A stretch of DNA of 64,000 bases, taken from contig JBFMGO010000013.1 of the NCBI GenBank assembly GCA_040752695.1, forward strand, positions 15,858-79,857. The letters run 5' to 3'. Below the pieces are notes generated by a model, which had not been told where the DNA came from, did no database searches, and saw nothing but the letters and a program-made list of their open reading frames with translations. This document shows, piece by piece, positions 40,111-64,000 of this stretch (its first letter is position 1; the number at the start of each line of letters is the position of its first letter). The translations under genes were made by a program, and so were the position numbers. This DNA comes from a bacterium. GTDB taxonomy: Bacteria; SZUA-182; DTGQ01.

Positions 40111-40272
40111 CCACTGATACCTTATACCTCATCTGCTGGTGCATTTTATACCATGAAGAAACCCTCTCCTTCATTCTCGGCATAAGGTAAAAAAGTTGCT
40201 ACCTAGAGCCTGTTCTTTAGCCTGTTTTAGCCTGTTCTTTAGCCTGCTCCCGGAACTTACCCTGGTTTTTTC

Positions 40273-41302: not shown

Positions 41303-41377
41303 GGCACAGGTATTTCACGAAAGAAACTGCTCAGCCTCATGAGCGGGGCACAGGTATTTCACGAAAGAAACTGCTCA
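41303..41377. repeat. 31-bp direct repeat (period 44) duplicating the Hpt stop region
   Basis: GGCACAGGTATTTCACGAAAGAAACTGCTCA at 41303 and 41347. Confidence 0.9.
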
Positions 41378-41682
41378 AGCTCGTGAAAGGATGTTTTCAG
41401 CCTGGCCATATCTGCCTCAACAGCCTTTTTATCTTTATCATTCTTGCTGCCAAGCTCTATGGATCTGGCAATGTTTTGGATTTCCTCGATCCGGAAATTT
41501 CCCACCATGCCTCTCAGAGCGTGGGCGATCCTGGCTGCCTGATCAAAATCATCCGCATGAATCGCCTCATCCAATTTCTCTATGAAATCTTTGGCCTGTA
41601 TGATGAGCTCACCAAGGAGCTCGTGGTACGTTTCTTCATCGATCCCAAGTTCCTCCCGGATTTTTTCCCTGTCCAGATACAT
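41359..41682 (-). CDS. Hpt phosphotransfer protein
   Basis: Helical 107 aa protein with AHALRG..GN motif. Confidence 0.85.
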   Translation of the reverse strand: MYLDREKIREELGIDEETYHELLGELIIQAKDFIEKLDEAIHADDFDQAARIAHALRGMVGNFRIEEIQNIARSIELGSKNDKDKKAVEADMARLKTSFHELEQFLS

Positions 41683-41696
41683 CGTTTATCCCTCCG

Positions 41697-42731: not shown

Positions 42732-42831
42732 TTTCCATCTCTTTTGTACACAACGGAATGAATGGTTATGAAAAAAAATATCAGGAACACTTTTCATCTT
42801 TCACCTCTCTTTGTACGTCTCTCTATACTCT

Positions 42832-45576: not shown

Positions 45577-45646
45577 GTATGGTCCTGGTCAGGAGAATTT
45601 CTCGTGCCTTCAATGTCGGGGTTCCTTTTGTTCCTTAACCCTGTCA

Positions 45647-47128: not shown

Positions 47129-47217
47129 GCCACCCTCCATAAAGTACAGGTGTCCCTTTTCTCTTTTCATCGGCGGGTATACGGAGAAACTTCAGAAGTG
47201 ATTTTGGGTATAAACTG

Positions 47218-50200
47218 CTACGGCTGAAGGGAAATAACGATAAGATCATCGTCTCCGATAGTCCTGTCAAGGCCGCACGGCTGTTCAAAAAGCTGGTATA
47301 CGGACCCGGCCAGTTCTGTCAGGCTGTCGTAGATGAGAAAATGCACGTGCTGGAAAGTGTTCCTGCCTGCCAGTTCAAGATCCGTACACAGATAGGTGGC
47401 TTCTGCCATACTGACATGACTGGGCGTACCCTGTCCGGCAGTATTGTGATAGAGCCTGCAATTGAGGATAACGGGCTCGGAATCGGATGTCCAGTATATC
47501 CCCCCGCCGGCAAAGTCAGCGCTGTTCTCGGCTATGATGCAGCGGGTAATCGAGGCTGAGGATCGCTCACAGTATATCCCTGCGCCGTAAGGGGCACTGT
47601 TCCCCGATACCGTACAGTTTAAAATAGCGGGTGAGGAATTGAAGCAGTATATACCGGAGCCTCCAGAGCCTCCGGTGCCTCCGGAGCCAGGGGAACCGCT
47701 GCCGCTTCCGCCCACTGCCAGTCTCCTTTCCGGGAGGGTTACATTTGTCCGTGCCGTATCAGAGAGTGTTCCCGCCATACATCCGGACATTGTTCCCGAT
47801 GTCCGCAGCCTTTTCAACAAAAGGCTATTCAAATCGTGGGTGATCGTCAATCCGTCAATCTCAGCCTGATTGGCATCGGTAAAGGCTATGACCGGCTGTG
47901 CGGGTCTGCCGATCAATATGACAGGATAAAGAGCCGGGTCCCTTTTGCTAAAATCGCTGTTCCATCCTCCCTCAAGCCTGATTCCATCGCGTATCGTGAC
48001 CTGAGTATCGAAGTATGAGCCCGTAGCCAGCCGTATGGTATCTCCTTTGCCTGCATGGTCTATGGCATCTTCAATATTTGCATAGTGATATTCCAGGCCG
48101 CCGGGATGATCGGGATTTACGAAGAAGACCCGCTTGATGGTCACCTTCTGCTCCTGGTAAGCGGTATTGCCGCTGCCATCATGAAAGGTCCAGATGACGG
48201 TATGATTGCCTTTTTCGGTATAGGTGAGGGGGCTGGCTGCACCCATAATCTTTCCCTGGCAGCGATCGGTTGCAGTGGGAGGAGTAAGCGTAAAAGAATT
48301 CTCGGCTACGATATCCGGCAGGACATCGAGGTCCGGCACCGGCTTTTTCGTATCAGTCACCACGATTTTCTGCATCTGATAGGAAGTGTTGCCATAGATA
48401 TCCCTGTAGTTCCAGGTCAGGGTATAGGTACCAGGCGGGGATGAGGGTGTGGGCAAAGGATCGTCGGTTGTGCCTGTGATCCATCCTGTGCACAGATCAG
48501 TGGCAGTTGGTGAAGTAAGATGTACCTGGTCACCGCACTCTGTACCTAAGTCCGGCAGGGGATTATAGTCGGGCTCGGGGGGAGTGGTATCCTGCACGGT
48601 GACTAATTGCTCCTGCGAGGTGGTATTGCCATGGCCGTCGTCGTAGATCCAGGTTACCAGAAAGCTGCCCTGACCGGTATAGAGAGTCGGGTCTTTGGTT
48701 GTGGCGCTAACCGTTCCGGCGCAGTCGTCGGTTGCCGTCGGCGGGGTGAGGACAACCTGGCATTGCCCTCGGGCTGCGGGCAGAGGGTTCTGGCAAGGCA
48801 CCGGTTTTTGATCGTCGTAGTATTCATAGGCACCGAGGTCAGGCATAGGCTGGCCGTCGCAGTCCCCATCGTAGGGCCGTGCTCTGCCATCCCTGTCCAC
48901 AGCCGGTGCATCGACATTGGTGCCTGCATCGATGCAGGGAGATCTCTTCGCAGGGCTTGAGGAAAGGTAAAAATTGCGCCGTGAGGTGTCTTTAAACAAA
49001 GGATCTTCCTGAAGATTATGGGTAACTGAAGGATCGCCGAAACCACCCTGAATGACTGAGTAGGTTATGGTGCAGTTCGATCGGCTATCGAGCCTGGTCT
49101 CGTCTGGAGCATCCTGCCACAAAATGCTGTTCGTTACCGTAAGCTGGGCATTTTCAGAAAATATGCCGCCTCCCCAACGGGAAGCAGTAGATCCGTTACC
49201 CCACAGGGTGCAGTTTACTATCTTCAAGGATGAGTCTTTGGTAAATATTCCGCTGCCCTCATACGAGGCGTTATTACACCAGAGCGTGCAATTGGTGACC
49301 GTTACGGTGGATGTGCCGTCGCAGCATACCCCGCCTCCATATTTGGCCCAATTTTCCGAGATCGTGCAATTCTGGATGACAAGAGAGGAATTGATGCAGC
49401 AGATCCCGCCTCCATACAGATCCGATCGGTTTCCCGCTATGATACAGTCGGTTATTACCGGAGAGGAATTAACGCAGAACAGGCCGCCACCTGCCTCATA
49501 AGCCCAATTGCTGCGTATCTCGCTGTTTGCTATGGTCGGTGAAGAATTCTGGCAGTATATGCCGCCACCGGAATAGGCGATGTTGTACGAGATAACTTCT
49601 CTGAACCGTACCCGGTTTGACGGCGCAAGGGGAGGCACATCCTCCTCGAAGCCGGCATGTGCATATTCAACGATGAAACCATCCATACCGGAGTTTTCCG
49701 CGTCCATGAAAACGATAGAAGCACCGGAAAGGATCGACCTTCCAGTTTTCTCATCCCTTTGGGTAAAGCCCGATTCCCATCCGCCTATCAGTTTCATTCC
49801 ATTACGTATCGTAACTTTCTGCTCGAAGCGGTACTGGCCTTTTGCCACCCTGATCTCACCCACCTCAATCTCAGCATCCGTCTTCACCTTCCCCATAGCA
49901 TCGATTGCATCCTTTAGGTTTTTAAATGCCTGATCCTGCCCAACGCGGGCAACGGCGGTTAAAACGAAAAGCTGCGGCTGATTGTTTTCATTGCCGTGGC
50001 CATCATTATAGATCCAGGTTATCTTGTGGTCACCGGGTTTTTGAAAGTTCAAGGAATCTTTGGTAAATCCGGTTATTTCTCCGGCGCATGGATCTACGGC
50101 CCTGGGAGGAGTTACCGTGCCTGTTTTACAGGCCCATTCGGGTCCGGTCACCGGATCGTAGGCGATCATTACGCACTCTCCGGTAATAGGGGGCAGCGAA

Positions 50201-51684
50201 GGCTGCATCGGGACAGGCTCGTCTCTATCAACTACAACGACGGTTTGCTTCTGAGTCAAGGCGATCCCGCTCCCTTTCCCGTACCGGTAAGTCCAGCTTA
50301 TGGTATACGTCCCAGGAATATTGGAGGGTATATCCCTGGCAGCTATATCCGGGGTTGCTGTTATCTTATGGCCGGTGCAGTCGTCCGTGGCCGTGGGCAA
50401 TCTGAATTCGATCTTCTGACCGCAGGTGAATTCCACAAGGCCCAACGATATTTCGTCCGGCTGCAGCGACGGGCCAGCCTCCTGGTCAGGATTATAGTAA
50501 TCCGGACACAGGTCGCAGGTATCTCCTCTTCCATCACGATCTTTATCTGTCTGATCCTTATTTTCCACAAGGGGGCAGTTATCACAGGCATCTCCAAAAG
50601 GGTCCTTATCGCTGTTGGTCTGCTGAGGATTATACACCTTGGGGCAATTGTCCGGAGCCTCCAGGACATAGTTTCCCCGTGGCTGCTCACACTGAACCAC
50701 GAACCTGTCCTTGTCGCCATACCCATCCTTATCCTCATCGAAATACCAGATGGTTTTCGGGTTAATCCTGGCCTGACTGTCGTCGCAATCATCAGCATTG
50801 GACACATAGCCGGCAGGCTGCTCGGACTGGGTTTGGCTCACATCCCTTGTGCCATACCCGTCTTGATCCCCATCCCTGTACCACATCCTGGCCGTGGCCG
50901 AAGTGATGCATACACATGCACCGCTGGCAGTAAAACGATCTATGTCATCCACCAGTTCTTCAACCTGCACCGGATAGCACTCACCATCGCTCCCACCCTT
51001 GATTTTAAATTTCAACCAGACCAGACAGCCGCTTGTCCCTTTTGCAATACCTCTACCGAAAGAATAGCCGCCTCCTCTCAATCTGTCTCTGTCCGTAGTA
51101 TAGACATCGAAAGTGCTGAGGAAAGCAGATAAGCTTCCTTTACTAAAGCCCGTATACTCCATGATGCTGGCATCGTAGGTAACTTCAAAGCCGAAGGTAA
51201 AAATCTGGCTGGGTATGGACTGAAACAGCACCGCAATGAGAATCTCATCTCCCACTTTTGCACTGACCCCTTTAAGGTCCAGCACTCCTGAGTCATCTTC
51301 CCGGCACCTGAAGAAGATTTGTTTGAGTCCCTCGGGTTGCAGGATAATTGGATTGCCGGACTTATCAACAACTGGCTGAAGATCAGGCTGGAGATCAGAC
51401 TGGAGATCAGGCTGGATAGTTGGATGGAGATCAGGCGAAAGAGAGATGAAAGCGCCTGGATTGGTTAAAGGGAGTGCGGCATCGCTGCCGCCATCATTCA
51501 GCGGGCGATCAGCACCTGGACCGGCGGCCTGCTGGAAAGCGGCACCCGCGGTCTTTCCTGGTGATAGAATCATCGAAAGCACGAGGAGCAGAATAACAAT
51601 GACACCCTCCCACCTTTTCGGAACCGTTATGCGGCTGATTATGGATCGTGTTCGTGCCATGGAAGAAAATAGCATATTATTCAT
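47218..51684 (-). CDS. Giant secreted/surface protein (cohesin, Ca-binding TSP3-like repeats, HYR-like repeats, parallel beta-helices)
   Basis: Signal/TM segment; cohesin-like FGFEVTYD..LKFKIK; WYRDGDQDGYG; DNCP..NP.Q..D.D..GDACD; PTATD.C repeats; GGGIYC..SSP.I.N beta-helix; SPCIDAG..DLGAYEY. Confidence 0.8.
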   Translation of the reverse strand: MNNMLFSSMARTRSIISRITVPKRWEGVIVILLLVLSMILSPGKTAGAAFQQAAGPGADRPLNDGGSDAALPLTNPGAFISLSPDLHPTIQPDLQSDLQPDLQPVVDKSGNPIILQPEGLKQIFFRCREDDSGVLDLKGVSAKVGDEILIAVLFQSIPSQIFTFGFEVTYDASIMEYTGFSKGSLSAFLSTFDVYTTDRDRLRGGGYSFGRGIAKGTSGCLVWLKFKIKGGSDGECYPVQVEELVDDIDRFTASGACVCITSATARMWYRDGDQDGYGTRDVSQTQSEQPAGYVSNADDCDDSQARINPKTIWYFDEDKDGYGDKDRFVVQCEQPRGNYVLEAPDNCPKVYNPQQTNSDKDPFGDACDNCPLVENKDQTDKDRDGRGDTCDLCPDYYNPDQEAGPSLQPDEISLGLVEFTCGQKIEFRLPTATDDCTGHKITATPDIAARDIPSNIPGTYTISWTYRYGKGSGIALTQKQTVVVVDRDEPVPMQPSLPPITGECVMIAYDPVTGPEWACKTGTVTPPRAVDPCAGEITGFTKDSLNFQKPGDHKITWIYNDGHGNENNQPQLFVLTAVARVGQDQAFKNLKDAIDAMGKVKTDAEIEVGEIRVAKGQYRFEQKVTIRNGMKLIGGWESGFTQRDEKTGRSILSGASIVFMDAENSGMDGFIVEYAHAGFEEDVPPLAPSNRVRFREVISYNIAYSGGGIYCQNSSPTIANSEIRSNWAYEAGGGLFCVNSSPVITDCIIAGNRSDLYGGGICCINSSLVIQNCTISENWAKYGGGVCCDGTSTVTVTNCTLWCNNASYEGSGIFTKDSSLKIVNCTLWGNGSTASRWGGGIFSENAQLTVTNSILWQDAPDETRLDSRSNCTITYSVIQGGFGDPSVTHNLQEDPLFKDTSRRNFYLSSSPAKRSPCIDAGTNVDAPAVDRDGRARPYDGDCDGQPMPDLGAYEYYDDQKPVPCQNPLPAARGQCQVVLTPPTATDDCAGTVSATTKDPTLYTGQGSFLVTWIYDDGHGNTTSQEQLVTVQDTTPPEPDYNPLPDLGTECGDQVHLTSPTATDLCTGWITGTTDDPLPTPSSPPGTYTLTWNYRDIYGNTSYQMQKIVVTDTKKPVPDLDVLPDIVAENSFTLTPPTATDRCQGKIMGAASPLTYTEKGNHTVIWTFHDGSGNTAYQEQKVTIKRVFFVNPDHPGGLEYHYANIEDAIDHAGKGDTIRLATGSYFDTQVTIRDGIRLEGGWNSDFSKRDPALYPVILIGRPAQPVIAFTDANQAEIDGLTITHDLNSLLLKRLRTSGTMSGCMAGTLSDTARTNVTLPERRLAVGGSGSGSPGSGGTGGSGGSGIYCFNSSPAILNCTVSGNSAPYGAGIYCERSSASITRCIIAENSADFAGGGIYWTSDSEPVILNCRLYHNTAGQGTPSHVSMAEATYLCTDLELAGRNTFQHVHFLIYDSLTELAGSVYQLFEQPCGLDRTIGDDDLIVISLQP

Positions 51685-52097
51685 AGGTTACTCATAATCC
51701 AGATTGTTCCGGACCAGGAACAAGTACCGGCATAGAAACCCCCGGTTCCTTATCTGCCCGTCTATCCTGTTACCCTATCAGATATTTTTTATGTTATGAG
51801 TAGTTATTTAATAAAAATAGCAGGAAATGCATATAAGAGTCAAGCCAATGTTACGGGATACTAAAAAAGCAGTTTCAATAACAAGTTATTAAGGCGGGAA
51901 TAGACTTCTGGAGGTTTTAGCACGGGCTCAGAGCAATGCAGTGAAGAGCAAAAAGAAAAAGAAGGTAGATTTTCAGCACCATGGTGCTGAAAATCTACCT
52001 TCTTTCCACAGGCTTGCGTTCGGATATTTCCTTATTCCGTTTTTCAAGGGAGCCTTGTTTTCGAATGGACAATCAGAGGAACACCTCGGGTGCGGCA

Positions 52098-54671
52098 TTA
52101 TCCGGCCACAACGATATTCACGATTTTATCCGGTACGACAATCACCTTCCTGATCTGTTTGCCGTCGATCAGTTCGCGAACCCTGTCCAGGTCTTTGGCG
52201 GCTCTTTCCAGATCTTCCCGTGGAGCTCCGGGCTCTGCTGGAAATACTCCCCTCAGTTTGCCATTCACCTGCACAGCGATCTCAATCTCCTCCAGCCTGG
52301 CCAGTTCCTCGTCATAAGCCGGATAGCTGGCCAGGAAGATCGATTCAGTATGGTTGAGGTGATGATACCAGAGCTCTTCGCAGATATGCGGCGCAAAAGG
52401 GGAAAGGGTAATCAGGAATTGTTCAGCTAATTCCCTGGTGAAAGATTCGCGGATCGAGCTTGCCTCATTGATAAATTCCATAAAAGCGCTCACTGCCGTA
52501 TTCAGCTTAAAGGCATTCAGCCTTTCGTCGACCTTTTTGATCAGGCGATGGGTCAATTGCTCCGCTTTCCGGGAAGGCTCCCTGGCTTCAAAATTTCCTG
52601 CTGCCATGAACTGCCAGGCTTTTTTCAAGAATGCATAGCATCCCTTGATACCCTCGTCATTCCACTCCGAGTCAGCGGTCGGATCACCGGCAAAAAGCTC
52701 GTACAGCCGCAAGGCATCAGTGCCGTACTTTTCAACCAGTTCATCCGGATTGACCCCGTTACCCTTGGATTTGCTCATCTTCTCCATGGATTTTTGAAGC
52801 GTGCTCTTGCATATCGGACAGGATACCTCATCCTTGCCAAAATCGTCTTTTATCTGCTCTTCGAATATCCAGCGGTTGCAGGTGCTGCACCGGTATGCGG
52901 TTCTGCAGATCATCCCCTGGTTAAAGAGCTGCTGGAACGGCTCATGAAAAGGAACCGCTCCCTCATCGCAGAGGAATTTAGTCCAGAAGCGGGCATACAG
53001 AAGATGCAAAACAGCGTGCTCGATCCCTCCTACATACATATCTACCGGAAGCCATTGTTTGATATCGGACTCCCTGGCTATGGCCTGATCATAGCGGGGG
53101 GAAGCGTACCTGATGAAATACCAGCTCGAACCTGCCCATTGCGGCATAGTGTCAGTTTCCCTTCTGGCAGGCCCGCCGCAGGCCGGGCAGATGGTATTCA
53201 CCCACTGTGTGATAGCGGCCAGGGGTGATTCGGCGTCACCTGTCGGCTGATAGGACTCGACATCGGGCAGTTTGACCGGCAGTTCGTCTTCCGGCACTGC
53301 CACCGCACCGCACTTTTCGCAGTGAACGATCGGAATAGGTTCTCCCCAGTATCTTTGGCGGGCAAAAATCCAGTCCCTCAGCTTATAATCAACCGTGGCT
53401 TTGCCTTTGCCCTCTTTTACCAGCTCCTGAACGACCCTTTTTTTGGCCTGATCGACGTTCAGGGAATTCAGGTAGTCGGAATTGATCAAGGTGCCGTCGC
53501 CCGTCCAGGCACTGACAAGATTCCCCTCGCCGTCCCTTTCGGCCTGCTCCGAGTAGATTACTTCGACAATGGACAGATCGAACTTTTTGGCAAACTCGAA
53601 ATCTCTCTGATCGTGAGCCGGAACGGACATGATGGCACCGGTTCCATAATCCATCAGCACGTAATCCGAAATAAAGACTGGAACGGGCTTGTTATTGACC
53701 GGATTTATCGCATAACTGCCGGTAAAGGCACCGGTCTTTTCCCTTGTGACTTTTTGCCTGTCCACATAGGACAGGGCCTGGGCCCTTTTGATATACCCGC
53801 TCACCTCGTCCTGTCTTTCCGGAGTCGTCAGCCGGGACACTAAAGGATGTTCAGGCGCAAGGACCATGAAGGTTGCACCAAAAAGCGTGTCCGGTCTGGT
53901 GGTAAAGATGGCGAAGGAGATTTCCTCACGGTCGATCGTCTGGGCTTTGAAATCGACAATGGCCCCTTCAGAGCGGCCTATCCAGTTTCTTTGCATCTCC
54001 TTTACCTTTTCCGGCCAGTTCAGATCGTCCAGATCTTTGAGCAGCCGCTCTGCATAAGCCGTGATTTTGAGCATCCACTGCTTTTTATCTATTCTCTTGA
54101 TGTTCGGACCGCCGCAGCGCTCGCACTTTCCCCCTTCCGTTTCCTCATTGGCCAGAACGACCCTGCAGTCGCTGCACCAGTTCACCGGCTGCTGCTTTTG
54201 GTAGGCAAGTCCTTTTTTGAACATCCTTGCGAATATCCACTGCGTCCATGCATAGTAGTCAGGGTCCGTTGTGCTGATTTCCCGTGCCCAGTCATAGACG
54301 CAGCCTATTTCTTTCAACTGGCGCTTGATATTCTCGATATTCTTCCGGGTACTGATTTTCGGGTGTATTCCTTTCTTGATGGCATCGGTTTCCGCCGGCA
54401 GGCCAAAACTATCCCATCCCATGGGATGAAGCACCTTGAATCCCTTCAAAAGCTTGTAGCGACTCCAGATATCGCTGATAACATATCCGCGCCAATGCCC
54501 TACATGAAGCCCTGAACCGGATGGATAGGGGAACATATCAAGACAATAATAGGGAGGACGATCCTGGTATACCGGGTTATCAACAGAGTACAGTTTCTCT
54601 TCCTCCCACTTACCCCTCCAGTAAGCTTCAAAGGTATTCGGCTGGTAAGAAATATCCCTCGTTTTTTTCAT
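52098..54671 (-). CDS. leuS: Leucyl-tRNA synthetase
   Basis: MFPYPSG.GLHVGH, FTTRPDT, GTGAIM.VPAHD.RD, RQRYWG.PIP, KMSKS; AAGGAG RBS before ATG 54671. Confidence 0.98.
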   Translation of the reverse strand: MKKTRDISYQPNTFEAYWRGKWEEEKLYSVDNPVYQDRPPYYCLDMFPYPSGSGLHVGHWRGYVISDIWSRYKLLKGFKVLHPMGWDSFGLPAETDAIKKGIHPKISTRKNIENIKRQLKEIGCVYDWAREISTTDPDYYAWTQWIFARMFKKGLAYQKQQPVNWCSDCRVVLANEETEGGKCERCGGPNIKRIDKKQWMLKITAYAERLLKDLDDLNWPEKVKEMQRNWIGRSEGAIVDFKAQTIDREEISFAIFTTRPDTLFGATFMVLAPEHPLVSRLTTPERQDEVSGYIKRAQALSYVDRQKVTREKTGAFTGSYAINPVNNKPVPVFISDYVLMDYGTGAIMSVPAHDQRDFEFAKKFDLSIVEVIYSEQAERDGEGNLVSAWTGDGTLINSDYLNSLNVDQAKKRVVQELVKEGKGKATVDYKLRDWIFARQRYWGEPIPIVHCEKCGAVAVPEDELPVKLPDVESYQPTGDAESPLAAITQWVNTICPACGGPARRETDTMPQWAGSSWYFIRYASPRYDQAIARESDIKQWLPVDMYVGGIEHAVLHLLYARFWTKFLCDEGAVPFHEPFQQLFNQGMICRTAYRCSTCNRWIFEEQIKDDFGKDEVSCPICKSTLQKSMEKMSKSKGNGVNPDELVEKYGTDALRLYELFAGDPTADSEWNDEGIKGCYAFLKKAWQFMAAGNFEAREPSRKAEQLTHRLIKKVDERLNAFKLNTAVSAFMEFINEASSIRESFTRELAEQFLITLSPFAPHICEELWYHHLNHTESIFLASYPAYDEELARLEEIEIAVQVNGKLRGVFPAEPGAPREDLERAAKDLDRVRELIDGKQIRKVIVVPDKIVNIVVAG

Positions 54672-54907
54672 AATTTCACTCCTTAATCCAGTTTTTTCCA
54701 TTTTTAGCGTAAAGAAGCAAACGAAGTAAGAGGCGTAGAAAGGTGCAGAAGTTTCATATGCACGCAAGGTTTCATAAGCAGACGTGATCATAGCACTAAA
54801 AGATCAAAAAGTAAAATAGTACGAGGGAATCGAATGCTGGTTGATCGGATATTGAAGAACCCGAAAAAGAGTGCTCCAATATCCGATTCTCTGACGCCAG
54901 TATTCAG

Positions 54908-55570
54908 CTAGATAAGAGCTGTTCCCAGAATGGCGGCAGGCCCCAAAAGGCTTGTAGATGGAGGCGGCAAAGCAGGAATCGTCGGTACCGCAGGGGCCAC
55001 TCCCGCTGATAAGAGCGAAAGCAAAAGAGCCAGGGGTACAGGAAGCGGAGCCGGCGGCGCATAAGCGGAGTAGGCAGTCAGGTAAGACGAATTGGCAATA
55101 GGGACCGTATTGAGGATCCAACTGGATGAGGTTGGCGGCAGATAGTCATAGTCGGAAGGTAAAGAAATGGGAAGGGGCTTGCCTGTGACCGGATCAACCA
55201 GATAATCCGGAGGCCAGGGATTGATGCCGTACAGAGGATCGTAAAAAAGGAGACCTGCCGGAGTATTATAGAGAAGCCAGGGATTCGACCATGCCGGGTC
55301 CCAGGTCAGACCGGGTTGAGAGGGGAGTACCGTTGTCGGGAAAAGATCCGATACGATAGGGGTGGGATCTCCGGAAACAGGGTCAATGGGCGATAAGGCA
55401 GGAGACCACAGCGGCCACAGGGTCTCGTAGGGCGGGAGAGCTACCCAGTTGATAACCTGCGCACTTGACAGACTGCTGATGAAAACAAAACCGATCACCA
55501 GGAGAGCCAGTGATATTCCCTTCATACGGGCAATGACGATGCATTTTTTATTCATGATTATATTTCCCAT
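54908..55570 (-). CDS. Secreted Pro/aromatic-rich hypothetical protein
   Basis: Signal peptide ending SAQ; W/P/Y-rich mature part. Confidence 0.7.
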   Translation of the reverse strand: MGNIIMNKKCIVIARMKGISLALLVIGFVFISSLSSAQVINWVALPPYETLWPLWSPALSPIDPVSGDPTPIVSDLFPTTVLPSQPGLTWDPAWSNPWLLYNTPAGLLFYDPLYGINPWPPDYLVDPVTGKPLPISLPSDYDYLPPTSSSWILNTVPIANSSYLTAYSAYAPPAPLPVPLALLLSLLSAGVAPAVPTIPALPPPSTSLLGPAAILGTALI

Positions 55571-55597
55571 ATATTATTTCCCTTACTTTTTAATCTA

Positions 55598-56044
55598 TTA
55601 TAATAAGAAAGATAACAACGTATAGGGTGAAGTACCTGCCAGAACAAGCGAAGTGAGGGCACCGTAAGTTGTGGTGGTTGCAAGAGGCAGAACGGGTGCC
55701 GGCGCTGTAGCAGGAATAAGGGAAGTGACCGTGAACCCTGCGGGCGTTGTTGATGGGGGAATCACGCTGACTACCGGCGCAGCGGCAGTAACGGCCACAG
55801 GAGTTGTCGTGGTGACTACGGCGGCGGACCGGGATAAGGGCAAAAGCGATGGAGCGATGAATAACGGAACACGGGGAGCCGCCAAGGCCACGACCGGCGC
55901 AGGCGCAGGAGGGGGATACCAGGGGTTATAGAGAAACGTGGGGTATACCTGGGCGACAGGAGATGGAGCGGTCACCAGGTGAAATGAAACAAATATCAAT
56001 AAAACGAATATAACGAATAAGACAGATTTCCTCCATTGCTTCAT
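55598..56044 (-). CDS. Secreted Pro/Thr/Ala-rich hypothetical protein
   Basis: AAGGAG RBS, MKQWRK plus hydrophobic signal, low-complexity body. Confidence 0.65.
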   Translation of the reverse strand: MKQWRKSVLFVIFVLLIFVSFHLVTAPSPVAQVYPTFLYNPWYPPPAPAPVVALAAPRVPLFIAPSLLPLSRSAAVVTTTTPVAVTAAAPVVSVIPPSTTPAGFTVTSLIPATAPAPVLPLATTTTYGALTSLVLAGTSPYTLLSFLL

Positions 56045-56434
56045 ATTCAATTCTCCTTCAAGGTTGCATAAAAGTAATGACAAATCATTACTACTGATAT
56101 TGTCTTTCTGATCATATAACCGGTTACACTACGACCTTTCGGTTTCACCATCCTGGCTGTCTCATGGGACGAGTGATGATAGAGGAACCCCCTATAGCTC
56201 TAGAGGTTACAATCAGTCTAACGGGCGTTAGAGCTTGTTTATTACTATTATTTTATACCTTTGATCCAGGTTTTATCAAATTTATTTATCTGTATTCTCT
56301 GGGTCAGGATAAGGGCGGATGAATCTGCGTTCTTGCTTTTACTGCAAGGGAGGGAGAGGAAAATGAACCAGTATCTTTCTTACAGCGCTTCGAACACTCC
56401 GGACGATCAGGGGGGATTGGTTTTTCAATGAGCT

Positions 56435-56794
56435 TTACCCTATCTCGCTGAGCTCGGCAATGTTCCGCATCTCTTCTTCGGTCGGTTTTTTACCCCGTAT
56501 GGTTCTAAAGAATTGAGGCAATTCTGTAACCAGGTCTTTGTCTCCTGCGCTGATCGGGAGCAAGTGAACGCTTTCAACGGAAGCAAGATCAAAAAAGGTG
56601 TACCAGTCACCGGTACCGGGCTCAAGGCCGAGCTGTGATGCCCACAGGTGCAGCTTGTCATCATCTCTCGTAGGCGGCAGAATGCCCCGCTCAAGCTTGC
56701 TCCAGTTACTTGGATCATGACCGTTTTTTTTGCAAAACTCACACAACCCTATCTTTTGCTTTATTCTTAACTTCTTGATAAATTTTCCAAACAT
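56435..56794 (-). CDS. XRE-family HTH regulator
   Basis: FGKFIKKLR...DPSNWSKLERG..PP; AGGAGG RBS. Confidence 0.8.
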   Translation of the reverse strand: MFGKFIKKLRIKQKIGLCEFCKKNGHDPSNWSKLERGILPPTRDDDKLHLWASQLGLEPGTGDWYTFFDLASVESVHLLPISAGDKDLVTELPQFFRTIRGKKPTEEEMRNIAELSEIG

Positions 56795-57058
56795 GGACAG
56801 TGACCTCCTTTACTGTTTGATAATTATCAAGTGCGTGTTCTAAAATTTAACACCATATACATAATCGGTATTTTTTAAAATATTGTCCATTCGTTTTGAA
56901 TAGCATCCATTCTTTGGAAAGGTCTTTTTGGATTTACAAAAAGAATTATCATGATACGTTTTGAACCACAAAGAACATCATGTATGCTATGATAAAAATC
57001 CTGGCAGCAGCCAAAAGACAGCCGGTTCTGGTACCAGACTTTTACAAGGAGGGAAATC

Positions 57059-58252
57059 TTGTCACATTTTCTTTTTATCTTTACTTTTTTGGCAATATAC
57101 GGCGGCATTCACGCTTATGCTTACAGCAAAGTACAATCTGCCTTCCATCTGACATCAGTCGCCCAGGCAGTTCTTCTGATGCTCATGGCTTTAATGGTAT
57201 CCGCTCCGATCCTGATCCATCTCCTCAACAAGAGGGGGCTGACGATTACAGCCCGCTTTGCAGCTTATCTGGGATTTACGTGGATGGGGTTTCTCTTCCT
57301 CTTTTTTTCGATATTTCTGGCAGCCGATCTCTATAACCTGTTGGCACGACTTGTCGGGACAGTCTTTCGGTACGATAGTGCACAATTTGCTTTAGCAGGA
57401 AGAAGCTCCTTTTTTCTCCTGGCCCTTTTGGTTGTGGCTGTGGGATGTTACAGTATTTTCGATGCTCAAAGGATCAGAACCGAAAGGGTAGTCCTTACCA
57501 CTTCCAAGCTCCCTGAAGGAGTCAAGCGTGTTACCATGGTCCAAATAACCGATGTCCATCTGAGTCCTCTGGTGAGCCGTCAATTTCTGGAAAAGCTCAT
57601 AGGGGTCATTCGTGATGCCGGGCCCGATATTCTGGTCTCGACAGGAGACCTGGTGGATATGGAAATCAGCCAGATAATGGACATGGCTGATCTATTCCAG
57701 GAGATTAAGCCCCGATATGGTAAATTCGCCATTATGGGCAACCATGACTTTTATGCAGGCATTGATGCGGCTATGGATTTTACCACACGGGCGGGATTCA
57801 GGGTTCTTCGTGGAGAAGGGATAACGGTTGCAGGCATTCTCAATATGGCAGGCGTCGATGATCATGCGGATGCCCGTTTCGGGCAAACGACAGTCCGCCG
57901 CACCGAGAGGGAGATTCTTGCTTCACTGCCGCAAGGCCCTTTTACCGTTTTTTTAAAGCATAGGCCGGACGTCATGGAGGATAGTACCGGACTTTTTGAT
58001 CTTCAGTTAAGCGGCCATACGCATGGAGGGCAGATTTTTCCCTTTACATGGATTATCCACTTCTTCTACCCGATGCAAAATGGATTATACACACTTCCTC
58101 CTCATTGTTATCTCTATACCAACACCGGAGCCGGAACCTGGGGACCTCCCATGCGCTTTCTTGCTCCGCCCAGGATTACGGTTATCGAGATAAACAACAC
58201 AGAACCAGAAGCGCACTATTTTCGTCTACCGGGTACAGGTTCCTACAGGTGA
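57059..58252 (+). CDS. Membrane-anchored metallophosphoesterase (YkuE-like)
   Basis: 4 TMs; DVH, GDLVD, GNHD, HRP, SGHTHGGQ, GTWGPPMR. Confidence 0.93.
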   Translation: MSHFLFIFTFLAIYGGIHAYAYSKVQSAFHLTSVAQAVLLMLMALMVSAPILIHLLNKRGLTITARFAAYLGFTWMGFLFLFFSIFLAADLYNLLARLVGTVFRYDSAQFALAGRSSFFLLALLVVAVGCYSIFDAQRIRTERVVLTTSKLPEGVKRVTMVQITDVHLSPLVSRQFLEKLIGVIRDAGPDILVSTGDLVDMEISQIMDMADLFQEIKPRYGKFAIMGNHDFYAGIDAAMDFTTRAGFRVLRGEGITVAGILNMAGVDDHADARFGQTTVRRTEREILASLPQGPFTVFLKHRPDVMEDSTGLFDLQLSGHTHGGQIFPFTWIIHFFYPMQNGLYTLPPHCYLYTNTGAGTWGPPMRFLAPPRITVIEINNTEPEAHYFRLPGTGSYR

Positions 58253-58566
58253 GTTACTATCCAGCTCATACTCACGATAAAAACGAGTACAGGCCTTAGA
58301 ATATCAAAATTATGCCTGGCTCCACGGATAGCATCATTAGCGTCCTGAAGCGGAGTACGGTATAATGACCTGATTACCCTGATATATGCCAAAAGAAACG
58401 ACCCGAGAGCGAAAAGCCACGCTAAAGCCGTTATATATCCATTGATTGCCAAATACCTGATACAATTATATAACATCAGCCACGAACCCCTCTTATATTC
58501 ACTCACTAACCATCTATTCATTTTCAACCGGCCCGCATCCCCCGATTGAAGGAAGGATACAGGCAC
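58243..58566 (-). CDS. possible small membrane protein
   Basis: ORF with two hydrophobic segments only; no recognised motif. Confidence 0.25.
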   Translation of the reverse strand: MPVSFLQSGDAGRLKMNRWLVSEYKRGSWLMLYNCIRYLAINGYITALAWLFALGSFLLAYIRVIRSLYRTPLQDANDAIRGARHNFDILRPVLVFIVSMSWIVTHL

Positions 58567-58864
58567 GACATCTCAACACTCCACCTTCCATCATATCTCA
58601 TATGGGGTGGAGATACTTCCCCCGTCCTCATCGCTCCTTCAGTGTCTTATCTGAAGAGCTAAAATAAAGAAAACTATTAACTCTGGTCGAGAATAGCACT
58701 ATACATAAATAGTATAGCCGGATGTTTACTTGAAAGTCAAACAAATTTGACCTGCAAAAAAATCAGGAAGAGATTCCGGGACCCAATTTTCTTAAAAATG
58801 ATATGACAAGGATTTTGGTTTCTTGTATAATATAAATACTTTTATGATATATCGAGGTACAAAT

Positions 58865-60922
58865 ATGAAAAGTAAAGCAAGACCTAAAAATCAATTTATA
58901 CCAGAAAAAACAGATGAAAAATGGACAGACTCACATCCCGGCCGGCTTCATGAACTGATGAAAGAGCAGATAGCCCGGTCTGAGGCAGTCAATGAACAAC
59001 TGAGGCAGGAGATTACCGAGCTCAGAAGGACAGAGGAAATACTGAGAATCAATGAAGAGAAATACCGCTCTTTATATTTCTCGATGAGCAAAGCCGCTGC
59101 CTTCCATGAAGTAATCTATGATCAGGCAGGCCAGGCTGTGGATTACATGGTGCTGGATGTTAACCCATTATATGAAGCCATGGTCGGATTGCAAAGAGAA
59201 ATGATCATCGGCAGAAAAGCATCCGAGATTTACGGTACTGACAGGGTGCCACACCTTGAAATTTATGAAAAGGTAGCTGCCACAGGACATCCGACTTCAT
59301 TCGAAGTGTTCTTCTCTTCACTGGGGAAATACCTGATTATCTCTGTCTTTTCATCCTGGCCAGGACGGTTTGCCACTCTGTTTACCGACATTACCGAGTA
59401 CAAACAGACAGAGGAGGCCTTAAAAGAATCCGAATCCGAGTACTCAAATCTGGTGAACAAGGCCAAAGATAGTATAGCCATTGTCCAGGAAGGGCTTCTT
59501 CAGTTTGTTAATGAGGCTGCGGAAAAAATGACCGGCCATACGGTCGAGGAGTTGAGAGGGAAACCGTTTCACGACCTGATAGCTCCTGATTACAGAGAAC
59601 TGATCAGCAGAAAACATACGCTGCTTCTTGCAGGCGCAGAACCTCCCTCCATCTGTGAGGCAAAACTGAAAACCAAAGACGGGCTCACCAGGGATGTGGA
59701 GTTTTCCGTCAGTATTATCCAGTATCATGGAAAGCCAGCCCTCATGGCTATCGTCCGTGATATTACCGAACGCAAGAAAATGGAAGAGGAATTACAAAGG
59801 ATTCAGAAGCTTGAATCCATCGGCACTCTTGCCGGAGGCATTGCCCATGATTTCAATAACCTGTTAACGGCCATCGGCGGCAACCTTTCCTTTGGAAAAA
59901 TGCAGGCCAAAGAGGAGAGCAGTATGTATGAAATATTGACCGAGGCGGAAAATGCATGCCAGCAGGCCAAAAATTTGACACAGCAACTCCTCACCTTTTC
60001 CAAGGGTGGCGAGCCGATCAAAAAAGCCGCATCCATCCCGGAATTGGTAAAGGATACGGTGAGCCTCGCCCTCTGTGGTTCTAAGGTAAAATACGAACTA
60101 TCCTTTCCGGACGATCTGTGGCAGGTTGAAATCGATAAGGGGCAGGTAAGTCAGGCTATCGGTAACCTGGTGATCAACGCAGACCAGGCCATGCCTGAGG
60201 GCGGTGTAATCAGCATCAGGGCTGAAAATATGATGGTTAGGGAAAATAATAAATTATCTCTCAAGGGCGGCAGGTATGTAAAAGTGTCCGTAAAGGATCA
60301 GGGAGTCGGCATCCAGAGCGAGCATCTCCAGAAGATATTCGACCCCTACTTTACCACCAAACAAAACAGAAGCGGTCTGGGACTGGCCACCGCCTATGCC
60401 ATTATCAAAAAACATGCAGGATACATTACCGTAGAGTCGAGGGTGAAAGGCGGAACAACCTTCTCTCTTTTTCTTCCCGCTTTAGACGAACAGACCCAAG
60501 GGGTGAATGTCCCGGTCAAGGAAAAGCTCTTCCACGGCCAGAGGAAAATTTTATTCATGGATGATCAGAAGATTATCAGAGATATGGTAAGGAGGATGCT
60601 GGCTCATTTAAAATATGAGGTTGAACTGGCCAGCGATGGCCATGAGGCGGTAGAGTTGTTTAAGAAAGCAAAAGCATTAAAACAGCCTTTTGACGCCGTT
60701 ATCCTGGACTTAACCATTCCAGGCGGACAGGGAGGCAAGGAAGCCATCCAGATACTGCGTGAAATAGACCCCCAGGTGAAGGCCATTGTTTCAAGCGGCT
60801 ATTCAAATGACCCGGTGATGTCCGACTATAAACGCTACGGCTTCAGCGGAGTGGTTGTCAAGCCATACGACTTTGCAGAATTGACTGAAGCGCTATCCAG
60901 GCTGATAAGCAGCCGACCATGA
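58865..60922 (+). CDS. Cytoplasmic hybrid histidine kinase (2 PAS, HisKA, HATPase, REC)
   Basis: PAS domains ending DITE, AHDFNNLL, NADQAMP, GLGLA, REC DLTIPGG. Confidence 0.95.
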   Translation: MKSKARPKNQFIPEKTDEKWTDSHPGRLHELMKEQIARSEAVNEQLRQEITELRRTEEILRINEEKYRSLYFSMSKAAAFHEVIYDQAGQAVDYMVLDVNPLYEAMVGLQREMIIGRKASEIYGTDRVPHLEIYEKVAATGHPTSFEVFFSSLGKYLIISVFSSWPGRFATLFTDITEYKQTEEALKESESEYSNLVNKAKDSIAIVQEGLLQFVNEAAEKMTGHTVEELRGKPFHDLIAPDYRELISRKHTLLLAGAEPPSICEAKLKTKDGLTRDVEFSVSIIQYHGKPALMAIVRDITERKKMEEELQRIQKLESIGTLAGGIAHDFNNLLTAIGGNLSFGKMQAKEESSMYEILTEAENACQQAKNLTQQLLTFSKGGEPIKKAASIPELVKDTVSLALCGSKVKYELSFPDDLWQVEIDKGQVSQAIGNLVINADQAMPEGGVISIRAENMMVRENNKLSLKGGRYVKVSVKDQGVGIQSEHLQKIFDPYFTTKQNRSGLGLATAYAIIKKHAGYITVESRVKGGTTFSLFLPALDEQTQGVNVPVKEKLFHGQRKILFMDDQKIIRDMVRRMLAHLKYEVELASDGHEAVELFKKAKALKQPFDAVILDLTIPGGQGGKEAIQILREIDPQVKAIVSSGYSNDPVMSDYKRYGFSGVVVKPYDFAELTEALSRLISSRP

Positions 60923-61429
60923 ACACCATTTCCTCATAGGTAGTCTGCAAATACTACAGAGCGGTTTTCCAGTGCTCAGCCCTGAATCTCATTTCAATTC
61001 CTGGTAGGTAAGCTCCATTTCTTATGCTCATCATTTCAATTCCTGACAGGTAAGCGTCATTTGTAATGCTCATGGTGGTGGACGGCAGTCCATACCGGCT
61101 TGAACGAATCTGCGTGGACAAAGCACTTCAAGCGCTGGCAGAACAGCTCATTACTACGGAAAAGCAATTACGGAGAAGACAAATCCGATTCCTTATAGGT
61201 ATACTCCTAAAAATTTCTAAGACAAGCATCCGGTGATGCCGCTTTTCCAACCTTAATTTCAATTCCTTTCAAGGTATGCTAAAAGCCGGAACGAAAGCTG
61301 CATTCTGCTGCGGCATGCGTTCGGTTATCACGCCTTTTGTCATCGGTCCTCGTAGGTATGCTGATCATGGCACTGTTGGCCACCTGTATTTATCACCTGG
61401 TTTCAATTCCTTATAGGTTCGGCTCGGTT
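60923..61429 (-). CRISPR. Degenerate type I-B CRISPR repeat cluster (7 clear plus 1 vestigial repeat)
   Basis: About 30-bp repeats resembling RTTTCAATTCCTnnnAGGTAnGCT on + at 60923, 60991, 61033, (61125), 61182, 61256, 61339 and 61400; they end in ATTGAAAY on the minus strand; adjacent to cas5. Confidence 0.8.
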
Positions 61430-61496
61430 CGTATACCATCTCATGGATGGAATTGTTTTTCGCGGGACATGCTTGTGTATACACGGGGCTGCAGAG

Positions 61497-62273
61497 TCAT
61501 ATAAAAACAATATCCGTAGTCTGCCCATCATCCGATGAAACAGCGGCGTATTCTTTCAAGTCAGCCTTGAATGGCTTGCCGGATCTTTCATAGATAAGGT
61601 TAGACACTTTCCAGAGCTCCCTGCCCTGTTTAAAAGCAATCGGCATACGATCCTTTACGAAATGGCAGCCTTCGGAGGCAAGGAAATCGATTCCCTGATG
61701 GCCTAACTTTTCCACATTCACCACTGATGAAACCTTTTCAGCCATACCTTTTTTCATATCGTACTTTTTTTCTCCTCTGTAGTGAAAACCGGCAATAAAT
61801 TCCGAGATTCCCAGGTAAAGAGGATAAATACTGTAATCGCTGGCCAGTTGATGCTTCAGACTCCTCATGACGGCCTCATCCGCATGTTTGAAATAGATAC
61901 GGTAGGTAAGGCTGTTGCCCTCTTCCGATGAAAGCACAACCTCCAGCGGCACCTGGTAGGGAACCCTTGATCCCCGGAGAAACCGCACCAGAATGCTTTT
62001 CGGGCTCGAAAAATCATTTTTATTGGTACGTACGTAATTTATTGTCTGCATGATCTTACGCACGGGCTGCTGCACGGATACGGAGATCATTGTTCTTTCA
62101 GGTGACAGGAAATCATAATAATTATCCTTTTCGATACCGAGAATGGCACCGATCACCCCGCGAACGACTGTCGGGGGGGGGAAGTCATAGGTCAGTGAAG
62201 AGGAGTTGGTATAAAATTTTTTGAAATGGGCTAATTTTCCAATAAGGTCGAATACCAGCAGGCTCTGTGTCAT
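61497..62273 (-). CDS. cas5: Type I-B Cas5
   Basis: FDLIGKLAHFKKFYTNSSSLTY.FPPPT...G..GAILG, YPLYLGISEF; GGAGG RBS before ATG 62273. Confidence 0.93.
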   Translation of the reverse strand: MTQSLLVFDLIGKLAHFKKFYTNSSSLTYDFPPPTVVRGVIGAILGIEKDNYYDFLSPERTMISVSVQQPVRKIMQTINYVRTNKNDFSSPKSILVRFLRGSRVPYQVPLEVVLSSEEGNSLTYRIYFKHADEAVMRSLKHQLASDYSIYPLYLGISEFIAGFHYRGEKKYDMKKGMAEKVSSVVNVEKLGHQGIDFLASEGCHFVKDRMPIAFKQGRELWKVSNLIYERSGKPFKADLKEYAAVSSDDGQTTDIVFI

Positions 62274-62351
62274 TGTTCCCTCCGGATCTCTCGTTGGTCT
62301 TAACGCACAACGCCAAACTCCTGCGCGTCTTATCATATCCTGACTCCTGCA

Positions 62352-63314
62352 TCAAGCACCCATGAATTCTATCTTATCGTGGAAATAATCTCCTCCTCCC
62401 CAGCCTGAGATTTTTAAATCAGCGTGTTGCCAGAACAATATCCGGGATATCTTGGAGATCTGTTTTTTCAACAGGCAGCTCAGCCGGGTTACATCGAGAT
62501 GAAAATCGGCAATGCTTCTCAGGCCGTCTGTTTTATCCAGAACGATCTGATCCCGCAGGTCTCCAAGGAAGGTCTGGTTGTCTTTATATTCCACTCTGAT
62601 ATACAGGCGGGGAGTCTGGCCGATCTTGCTCCTGGTTGTAGCCTCCAAAGGTATGGATCTGATTATCGATTCATCGAAAAGCAGAATATCATCTTTATTC
62701 AGGCTGGTTCTCTCCGCCCTTCTGGCACTGATAATCCCGTGGAAGGCGATCAGTGAATAATATACCCTCCAGTCCTTCCCGATGGCACCTTGAGCTTTTT
62801 CAGCTTCAGAACTGAAATGCGAAGTAATGGAGCTGGAATCGAGCAACTCCACCCTGTTCAGGGAATACCCCCAGTTAAACTGGATAGGACCGGTAAAGGT
62901 TGCCGAGGCTCCTGCACCTTCCTTGGCCTTGATAGGCATGGTAGCTCCAAAAAAACGAACATCGACTAACTGTGAAAGGAGCCAGTTGATATGTTTTCTT
63001 TCCAGCTTGGTCAAATTCAGGTTGCGGGAATAATCGTTTTCCTGGCAGGCGAGAAATAACATCTCCAGCCTTTCGGTAACACTGAGCGCTTTATTGTCCA
63101 CCTTGGCTACGAAGATGTCCTGGCCCCTGTAATCCTGGAGGTAATCTCTGATGTATCTTTTCAGCCGGACATCGCTCACCAGGTTCCTCGATGATTCATA
63201 ATCCATGCGGGGCTTGTTCTCGTCGTCAGGATCACCGTTCGGATTTGTCTGTCTGGCATCATAAATAAACAGAATGTCGCTGTTTTGAGTTATCAGGTTA
63301 CTTGGAATATCCAT
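62352..63314 (-). CDS. cas7: Type I-B Cas7 (Csh2)
   Basis: NPNGDPD.ENKPRMD, VSDVRLKRYIRDY, DVRFFGAT, TGPIQFNWGYSLN, TRSKIGQ.PR. Confidence 0.95.
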   Translation of the reverse strand: MDIPSNLITQNSDILFIYDARQTNPNGDPDDENKPRMDYESSRNLVSDVRLKRYIRDYLQDYRGQDIFVAKVDNKALSVTERLEMLFLACQENDYSRNLNLTKLERKHINWLLSQLVDVRFFGATMPIKAKEGAGASATFTGPIQFNWGYSLNRVELLDSSSITSHFSSEAEKAQGAIGKDWRVYYSLIAFHGIISARRAERTSLNKDDILLFDESIIRSIPLEATTRSKIGQTPRLYIRVEYKDNQTFLGDLRDQIVLDKTDGLRSIADFHLDVTRLSCLLKKQISKISRILFWQHADLKISGWGGGDYFHDKIEFMGA

Positions 63315-63331
63315 TTTTCAAACTCTCTCCC

Positions 63332-64000
63332 TTACTCTTCCGTATTCTTAGACATGATCTTATTTGTCCTGTAGGCATAACCGGACAAGATGTAGAACAC
63401 ATTCTGCTGAGGGCTCAGGGTCCAGCCAGTGATCCTCTGGTCGAGCAGTTTTTTTACTCCGGCAAACATTTTTTCGTTTTCGGGAGATAACCTTCCATAG
63501 TGCAGTAACCTGGAAAATACTTCATTGGTGAACCTGATCAGCATCTCTTTACTCATTCCCTGAAAAGGCAGCTTTTCAAGAATCGGTTTATTCTTGATCC
63601 TGGCATTGAACTGGGCACTGCCAACTTCTCCGGTTAGAATTCCCAGTCCAAAAAGCGCCACCTGCTCTTCATCGTAGTTCATCTCATGAATATAGGTCTG
63701 GATCTCTTCGGGAAAATCCATCAGCCGAATATCTGTCATTTCTCCCCTTTCCCCTTTCAGCGTACCTAACCTGTCCAAATAGAGAAGCAATAAATTGGAC
63801 TTCAGTATGGAGGCAACTAAAGCCTGATCACCATTTCCATCTTTTCCGAGGTTGAACTGCTCTCCCTGATCACAGCGGCAGACTTTGGCAAGCCGGATGA
63901 ACTGCTGAATCAGGAAGGCATGCTCTACCTTCCTGCCGGTGAAAATTGCATCGTAAAAAGCAAGGATTTTTTTAAACTCATATGGGTTCTTTTTCCTGTC
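63332..64000 (-). CDS. cas8b: Type I-B Cas8b (C-terminal part; 5' end beyond the window)
   Basis: Frame open from 64000 (DRKKNPYEFKKIL...); C-terminus ALF.LG.L.GEVG.AQ...KPILEKL.FQGM...NVFYILSGY; directly upstream of cas7. Confidence 0.85.
   Translation of the reverse strand, partial: DRKKNPYEFKKILAFYDAIFTGRKVEHAFLIQQFIRLAKVCRCDQGEQFNLGKDGNGDQALVASILKSNLLLLYLDRLGTLKGERGEMTDIRLMDFPEEIQTYIHEMNYDEEQVALFGLGILTGEVGSAQFNARIKNKPILEKLPFQGMSKEMLIRFTNEVFSRLLHYGRLSPENEKMFAGVKKLLDQRITGWTLSPQQNVFYILSGYAYRTNKIMSKNTEE

Follow-up and report, generated by a model that had tools for sequence, protein, structure and literature searches.

The closest described relatives of the locus reported here are regulatory RNAs that resemble the guides of CRISPR systems (CRISPR: short palindromic repeats that are clustered and regularly interspaced). 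The CRISPR RNA-like (crRNA-like) RNAs CreA (of CreTA) and CreR occur in systems of types I-B, I-E, and V-A (Liu et al., bioRxiv 10.1101/2023.03.10.532045; Cheng et al. 2022, PMC9458426), where, in the cases these sources describe, they reside in complete immune systems with Cas3 and arrays, one per locus, and have a promoter target in the same locus. In a type I-F1 system, the CRISPR-associated antiviral defense complex (Cascade) was reported to repress without Cas3 when guided by a mini-array RNA, and mini-arrays are predicted to target the promoters of non-cas genes nearby (Shmakov et al. 2023, bioRxiv 10.1101/2023.03.03.530964). In Haloferax volcanii, the crRNA-like small RNA s479, located beside type I-B cas genes, was linked to zinc-transporter expression (PMC8155600), and in Francisella, a small CRISPR-Cas-associated RNA (scaRNA) together with Cas9 represses a lipoprotein operon (described in PMC9458426). 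In parallel, derived variants lacking Cas3 have been classified, namely the CRISPR-associated transposons (CASTs) I-B2 and I-F3, the variants I-E2 and I-F4 with an HNH nuclease, and an I-C system that is incomplete and was proposed to bind DNA (Makarova et al. 2025, PMC12669027; Altae-Tran et al. 2023, PMC10910872). The crRNA-like regulators have so far been described as accessories of working immune systems. Here, we analyse a type I-B cas gene set, followed by a cluster of degenerate repeats, at the end of a 64,000-nucleotide (nt) stretch of bacterial DNA, which we call the window (GenBank assembly GCA_040752695.1, contig JBFMGO010000013.1, positions 15,858 to 79,857 of the forward strand; GTDB lineage Bacteria; SZUA-182; DTGQ01).

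We consider it fairly probable that this locus is a domesticated, Cas3-less type I-B (Csh) Cascade with CreA/CreR-like fixed guides, which would bind DNA and leave it uncut. In its working mode, it appears closest to the CreA/CreR RNAs, the cargo-regulating mini-arrays, and Haloferax s479. It would share with CreA and CreR a degenerate repeat pair, a short fixed spacer, adjoining Csh-type cas genes, and a preserved handle, besides the importance of approximately the first 11 nt of the spacer and the expected Cascade binding without cutting; unlike CreA and CreR, it has four units in a row, and no Cas3, adaptation genes, array, or target in cis was found. The CreA design, as published, also has trailing repeats that lose the handle and no two identical repeats, and in CreTA such degenerated repeats resist recombination (Cheng et al. 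2022, PMC9458426). The cargo-regulating mini-arrays, as reported, resemble our module in having spacer positions 6 and 12 free; these class 1 mini-arrays were mapped onto a Cas3 tree, and Cas3-less modules may fall outside such a survey (Shmakov et al. 2023, bioRxiv 10.1101/2023.03.03.530964). Haloferax s479, according to its description, is likewise crRNA-like and associated with a type I-B Cascade, and it acts on host genes outside the cas set, but it is a single RNA in an archaeon with a complete, active type I-B system. The Francisella case, as summarised in the cited source, has in common a degenerate-repeat RNA that turns a CRISPR effector into a host-gene repressor through short complementarity, and differs in that its effector is of class 2 and retains both nuclease and immune function.

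As a system, the module belongs with the derived Cas3-less variants, as the type I signature, the adaptation genes, and an array were not found. Like these variants, in the form in which they have been described, it keeps the effector and a few fixed guides and has lost Cas3 and adaptation; unlike them, it shows no transposon and no replacement nuclease, it is chromosomal and apparently vertically inherited, and its seeds are conserved between species. Searches of open-access papers and preprints, supplementary tables aside, turned up no account of a type I-B module that is chromosomal, lacks Cas3, and carries several conserved guides. A possible functional parallel is the dev operon of Myxococcus, a type I-B-like system tied to development.

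Architecture of the locus

The original prediction, made from the letters alone, had placed cas8b, cas7, and cas5 on the minus strand of the window, and the Pfam models assign all three genes as predicted, with the NCBIfam models placing them in the Csh type. In positions of the window (used throughout wherever no contig label is given), these genes are the C-terminal 222 codons of cas8b (Csh1; 63332..64000; Pfam Cas_TM1802 positions 407–601), open at the window end; an intact cas7 (Csh2; 62352..63314; 320 amino acids (aa); Pfam Cas_Cas7, E 2e-60; TIGR02590, 223.6 bits, above cut-off); and an intact cas5 (Cas5h; 61497..62336; 279 aa; Pfam Cas5; TIGR02592, 112.5 bits, above cut-off). The end of the window, inside cas8b, is also that of its contig, and the remainder of the gene opens contig C94, one of the other contigs (C94, C6, C19, and C44) cited from the same assembly (G000; 6.05 Mb, 239 contigs, 96.6% complete). 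On C94, the N-terminal 435 codons of cas8b (G000:C94:2-1306, minus strand; Cas_TM1802 positions 1–394) are followed by cas6 (G000:C94:1486-2256, minus strand; Pfam; TIGR01877 above cut-off), then by the gene of a sigma-54 activator in divergent orientation and by that of an HDOD protein. The type I-B (Csh/Hmari) effector set of Cas8b/Csh1, Cas7/Csh2, Cas5h, and Cas6 is present, with NCBIfam and Pfam in agreement, and the Csh1 model TIGR02591 scores above cut-off for the complete cas8b orthologue. The operon is cas6-cas8b-cas7-cas5, with no further genes: an intact cas3 with an adaptation module upstream, which the prediction itself had named as evidence against its reading, was not found there, the sequence leading from the N-terminus of cas8b through cas6 directly to the divergent activator. 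The only domains that Pfam recognises in the proteins of the module are those of Cas5, Cas7, Cas8b, and Cas6, with no replacement nuclease domain.

Downstream of cas5 lies a convergent hybrid histidine kinase gene (58823..60922, plus strand; Pfam PAS-HisKA-HATPase-receiver), and the space between the two is occupied by seven 30-nt repeat-like units on the minus strand. As had been claimed, the units begin 67 nt past the cas5 stop, run up to the stop codon of the kinase (60920-60922), include no identical pair, and are irregularly spaced; the gaps given as 31, 52, 44, approximately 119, 12, and 38 nt were remeasured as 32, 52, 45, 118, 12, and 39 nt, each within one base. The end that would form the 8-nt 5' handle of a guide is intact in four of the seven repeats and destroyed in the other three, and a guide unit would consist of a leading repeat with its handle plus a trailing repeat in which the handle is destroyed. 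Guide a would have its leading repeat, with an intact 8-nt handle, at 61400..61429, a 32-nt spacer at 61368..61399, and a trailing repeat at ~61338..61367 that retains the 5' part and has the handle part destroyed. In guide b, the leading repeat with intact handle (61256..61285) is followed by a 45-nt spacer (61211..61255) and a trailing repeat with a broken handle (~61181..61210). The leading repeat of guide c (61033..61062, intact handle) lies within a tandem duplication of 42 nt (60989-61072, 86% identity) of the form “spacer c plus repeat”, and because of this duplication the spacer c of G000 measures only 12 nt (61021..61032) and abuts the next repeat. The latter is the leading repeat of guide d (60991..61020, intact handle) and doubles as the trailing repeat of guide c; the 39-nt spacer d (60952..60990) and a terminal repeat with a broken handle, overlapping the kinase stop codon (~60922..60951), complete the cluster, all units being on the minus strand. 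The trailing repeats retain their 5' part and lack the handle, so that no additional guide is expected to be produced downstream of them.

The repeats are specific to this place in the genome, as a repeat-derived 11-mer has four copies within 410 nt at the locus versus 24 single copies elsewhere in the 6.05 Mb, and all three occurrences of a longer composite repeat pattern in the G000 assembly are at the locus. One unit, the leading repeat of guide b, gives a sub-threshold match to the Rfam family CRISPR-DR2 (29.3 bits versus a gathering score of 37, E 0.012). Folding indicates that the repeats have essentially no structure (z-scores between -0.94 and +0.52), a result that is neutral for the regulator reading.

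Two further claims, that the cluster has no leader and that its guides are co-transcribed with the cas genes, are supported by the relatives. In the metagenome contig L019 and in G002, another species of the genus, the cas5 stop codon falls within the first repeat, leaving no space for a leader or a promoter; G000 differs from both in having the additional 67 nt between the cas5 stop and the first repeat, and a simple promoter scan predicted no promoter on the array strand. Because the cas5 stop lies inside the first repeat in these two relatives, the guides would be co-transcribed with the cas operon, and the view that they form the 3' tail of its transcript is supported by the anatomy of both.

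Relatives and the missing cas3

A Cas5 search covering 61 genomes gave matches in nine of them, with close orthologues (65–67% identity) in G001 and G002, the two further species of the genus; the remaining matches are distant, with at most 36% identity. A scan of metagenomes added L019, whose Cas5 is 79% identical to that of G000, and the Cas7 of G000 has 77–78% identity to its genus orthologues. All three relatives have the same layout of cas6-cas8b-cas7-cas5, degenerate repeats, and an orthologous convergent kinase gene, L019 being cut upstream. Upstream of cas6, the genus species G000, G001, and G002 each have a different gene. All four Cas proteins are encoded by open frames and are 63–81% identical across species, and the adjacent kinase is 68–74% identical; this similar identity fits vertical inheritance under purifying selection. 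Five more distant type I-B loci were compared, and in all five the gene immediately after cas5 encodes a helicase (four match Cas3-like_C_2, and the fifth is cut by a contig end), and cas4 and cas1 come next where the locus reaches that far. The mini-arrays of our module occupy the place held by cas3, cas4, and cas1 in these relatives.

Beyond the window, the check proposed in the original prediction found cas6 on C94, as described, and neither Cas3, Cas2, nor a canonical array. In the G000 assembly, there is no match to Pfam Cas3_HD (PF18019), the NCBIfam cas3 core model TIGR01587 reaches at best 34 bits, far below cut-off, and four Cas3 proteins from related type I-B loci gave no tblastn match. 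Cas2 was not found across the assembly. A crude array finder flagged 43 regions of G000, none of them array-like, the closest being coding repeats. The only adaptation genes found are a lone cas4-cas1 pair (G000:C6:62643-64396; locus L005 7638-9595, minus strand) among unrelated genes, with cas2, effector genes, and an array all absent nearby. The Cas1 of this pair has 402 aa with an N-terminal extension of approximately 65 residues, and the pair is flanked by an AMP-binding enzyme gene and by genes of large secreted proteins.

In G001, Cas1 genes are present and no Cas3 scores above the TIGR01587 cut-off. G002 has two further complete, unrelated CRISPR-Cas systems with their own Cas3 and long arrays (L065, G002:C10, 15590-19887, and L067, G002:C33, 5094-8329), the arrays having at least 60 and 42 repeats of unrelated sequence; one of these long arrays shares a contig with the Cas3-less module, approximately 130 kb apart.

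Conservation footprint of the guides

The evidence that carries our reading is the pattern of conservation in the repeats and spacers. All 14 intact-handle repeats of the four sequences were compared, four each from G000 and L019 and three each from G002 and G001, none being omitted, and they form four groups, a–d, whose order is constant in all four sequences. In the leading repeats, the handle (the last 8 nt) has one variable column of 32, the middle of the repeat 31 of 56, and the 5' third 31 of 32. In the spacers, two of the 40 columns at positions 1–5 and 7–11 vary, compared with seven of the eight columns for positions 6 and 12 and with 68 of the 72 for positions 13–30. Setting positions 6/12 against the rest of the seed yields a Fisher p of 3.7e-6. 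Taken guide by guide, positions 1–5 and 7–11 are identical in the three sequences carrying unit a; positions 1–11 and 13 of guide b are identical in four of four, with position 12 varying; positions 1–5 and 8–11 are identical in the three sequences with unit c; and positions 1–5 and 7–10 of guide d are identical in four of four. Between G000 and its closest relative, L019, guide d differs at just two of its first 19 positions, namely 6 and 12, which leaves 17 identical. The sequence between the units is not conserved.

In Cascade, every sixth base of the guide is flipped out and unpaired. In a validated mini-array RNA, in agreement with this geometry, positions 6 and 12 were reported not to add to pairing (Shmakov et al. 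2023, bioRxiv 10.1101/2023.03.03.530964). The footprint seen here is that expected of Cascade-bound guides with a seed of approximately 11 nt: the invariant handle and seed, together with the freedom at positions 6, 12, and 13–30, argue for selection on such a guide and not for neutral decay. The units were extracted with seed-based patterns; however, the footprint was not created by this extraction, because all the handle-bearing repeats were included. Structural and evolutionary features of CreA/CreR-type RNAs are also found here, namely handle-bearing units beside cas genes, four of them in this case, with the constraint confined to the seed.

The decay of a former immune locus is the alternative on which this footprint bears most directly. 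It would hold that cas3 to cas2 were deleted and that the leftover array and cas genes are turning into pseudogenes. The degenerate repeats, the irregular spacing, the absence of units a and c in one species each, the 42-nt duplication with its 12-nt spacer in G000, and the failure to find a target would all suit such a remnant. Decay, however, would strike all parts of the repeats and spacers equally, instead of sparing the handle and the seed and leaving almost every column of positions 13–30 variable, and the four cas genes are open in every species and conserved to the level of the neighbouring kinase. We therefore regard a decaying remnant as very unlikely, and the random decay in relatives that had been named in advance as contrary evidence was not seen. 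On the strength of these comparisons, we take the module to be real, under selection, and unusual in its architecture.

Proposed mechanism and its significance

The mechanism that we propose for a domesticated Cascade starts from the loss of cas3, cas4, cas1, cas2, and the adaptive array, with the four fixed crRNA-like guides a–d in their stead. The guides would be transcribed together with the cas operon, at its 3' end, Cas6 would cut the transcript, and Cascade would load the four RNAs and bind DNA flanked by a protospacer-adjacent motif (PAM) through the seed of approximately 11 nt. Because there is no Cas3 to cut, such binding would amount to occlusion or repression, a roadblock like that of the CreA/CreR RNAs, and the complex probably regulates promoters. 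More tentatively, and with rather less confidence than we place in the domestication itself, we suggest that a genus-wide type I-B Cascade may have become a chromosomal, multi-guide, RNA-programmed transcription factor that has lost immunity, its four guides probably including one for the promoter region of the adjacent kinase.

If true, this Cascade would have been retained in its own right and would differ from the accessories of working immune systems described so far. It would be a natural nuclease-free CRISPR interference (CRISPRi) regulon with no immune function left, and a clean natural case of the exaptation of CRISPR for gene control, in which the guide seeds are preserved between species sharing only about 65–80% protein identity. 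The rules of short-seed Cascade binding could then be read from evolution, by which positions are constrained, and a four-gene Cascade with a recombination-proof multi-guide array might be a template for CRISPRi tools. In case the link to the kinase holds, RNA-guided DNA binding would be tied to two-component signalling.

Search for targets

The repurposing of the Cascade as an RNA-guided regulator, as put forward in the original prediction, is supported by the footprint and the missing Cas3; no convincing target was established in G000. The following results weigh against our reading. Seed matches in G000, mostly in coding sequence (31, 16, 168, and 85 for guides a, b, c, and d, respectively), are no commoner than those of controls, the best non-self extended match is 17/20 compared with 16–17/20 for reversed-guide controls, and no flanking trinucleotide stands out as a PAM among 300 seed matches. 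The promoter of cas6 has no seed match better than 8/10, and the interior and flanks of the arrays have none of 9/10 or more in any of the four loci. The comparison is limited to four related sequences whose orthology groups a–d were assigned by eye, and G001 has no guide a and G002 no guide c, so that not every guide is indispensable. Lastly, at 96.6% completeness in 239 contigs, a cas3 gene or an array could lie in a gap of G000, and CRISPR arrays are often unassembled in draft genomes.

Several candidate targets were tried and dropped. Three guide-a matches with a TTA flank are all within genes. Guide-b-like sites that seemed tied to kinase paralogues turned out to lie in PAS-domain coding sequence or in ribosome-binding-site-like stretches, and the guide-b seed pattern is no commoner in G001 and G002 than a backwards control. 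A guide-b site with TTA upstream of a secreted-protein orthologue in G001 and G002 is absent upstream of the G000 orthologue.

The best candidate, on suggestive grounds, is the promoter region of the kinase with its divergent neighbour. A stretch between the kinase promoter and the divergent promoter (58741..58802) is the sole variable part of an otherwise conserved kinase intergenic region and might be a landing zone for Cascade. There, in G002, a site beside TTA, 9 nt upstream of the kinase -35 box, agrees with guide b at all 12 pairing positions considered, and at the equivalent place in G001, guide b has matches of 9/10, 8/10, and 8/10, two of them beside TTG. In G000, it is guide d that has a 9/10 seed match (58770-58780, plus strand), on the strand opposite to the guide-b sites. 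A rough post hoc estimate puts the chance expectation for the matches in the kinase region at below 0.1. Counting against this candidate, the guide-d site of G000 is mismatched at seed position 8 and has the flank GAA, unlike the TTA and TTG of the relatives, and L019 has no match in the inter-promoter stretch.

Alternative explanations

The explanation that survives best beside a domesticated regulator is an addiction module of the CreTA kind, which we consider unlikely. In this case, the guides would be CreA-type antitoxin RNAs that repress one or more toxin genes and thereby keep the Cascade after immunity was lost. It has in its favour the CreA-like architecture, in which a handle-bearing leading repeat and a degenerated trailing repeat enclose a fixed, short spacer beside type I-B Csh cas genes, and addiction would also explain why four species have kept all four cas genes. 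The target of CreTA, as described for the known modules, is nevertheless the linked creT promoter, and the lack of any self-target within or beside the array at the four loci argues against a CreTA module in cis. Moreover, no conserved small open reading frame (ORF) or RNA was seen between the units, where the sequence is not conserved.

After the decaying remnant, already weighed above against the footprint, comes a regulation of the CreR type, in which the guides would do no more than adjust the expression of cas genes, in their own operon or at further CRISPR-Cas loci. Type I-B is reported to have many mini-arrays close to cas6 and within composite loci (Shmakov et al. 2023), and the two complete systems of G002 could be the objects of such cross-regulation. 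This explanation is nonetheless improbable: the cas6 promoter is conserved and its seed matches stay at or below 8/10, G000 has only the lone cas4-cas1 pair and no second effector module, with no seed match near the pair, and four distinct conserved seeds exceed what autoregulation would need.

A guide module of a CAST-like mobile element, or an interference module borrowing Cas3 in trans, is scarcely credible, for while Tn7-like transposons are known to carry type I-B modules devoid of Cas3 and adaptation genes (bioRxiv 10.1101/154229; Makarova et al. 2025, PMC12669027, as described there) and G002 encodes Cas3 proteins elsewhere, the Pfam-examined neighbours (window 39580-58252 and C94:1-18483) include no transposase or TniQ, the context is chromosomal and syntenic with a leucyl-tRNA synthetase gene nearby, no relatives of Cas7 were found in viral contigs, G000 and G001 show no Cas3 to borrow, and conservation spans just approximately 11 nt per guide. 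A genome-wide search of G000 for TniQ also gave no match, but its positive control was equally silent, which makes this a weak result.

Surroundings of the locus

The neighbours within the window are ordinary chromosomal genes, the leucyl-tRNA synthetase included (Pfam, window 39580-58252). In the case of the kinase, the TTG start listed for its ORF overlaps a predicted extended -10 box (58824-58831), and therefore an in-frame ATG at 58844 is probably the true start; this ATG would give a 5' untranslated region of a few nt, and the kinase messenger RNA may be leaderless. The divergent neighbour is a small conserved membrane-protein ORF (58243-58566, minus strand; upstream region 58567-58740), which is kept in all four sequences. 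Its promoter is strong and sigma-70-like, with the -35 box at 58735-58740 and the -10 box at 58711-58716 (minus strand), and its leader of approximately 150 nt has no Rfam match.

Elsewhere in G000, two 13-nt copies of the guide-b seed, in which position 6 alone differs, lie 120 nt apart (G000:C19:65916-66050), and this pair flanks a segment bounded by 12-nt inverted repeats, just past the end of an ORF. Genes for repetitive proteins that are rich in Gly, Tyr, and Met and match no Pfam family form clusters at G000:C94:8600-14500 and C44:39100-39650. These genes adjoin M4 and S8 protease genes, and their DNA repeats mimic CRISPR arrays in simple finders.

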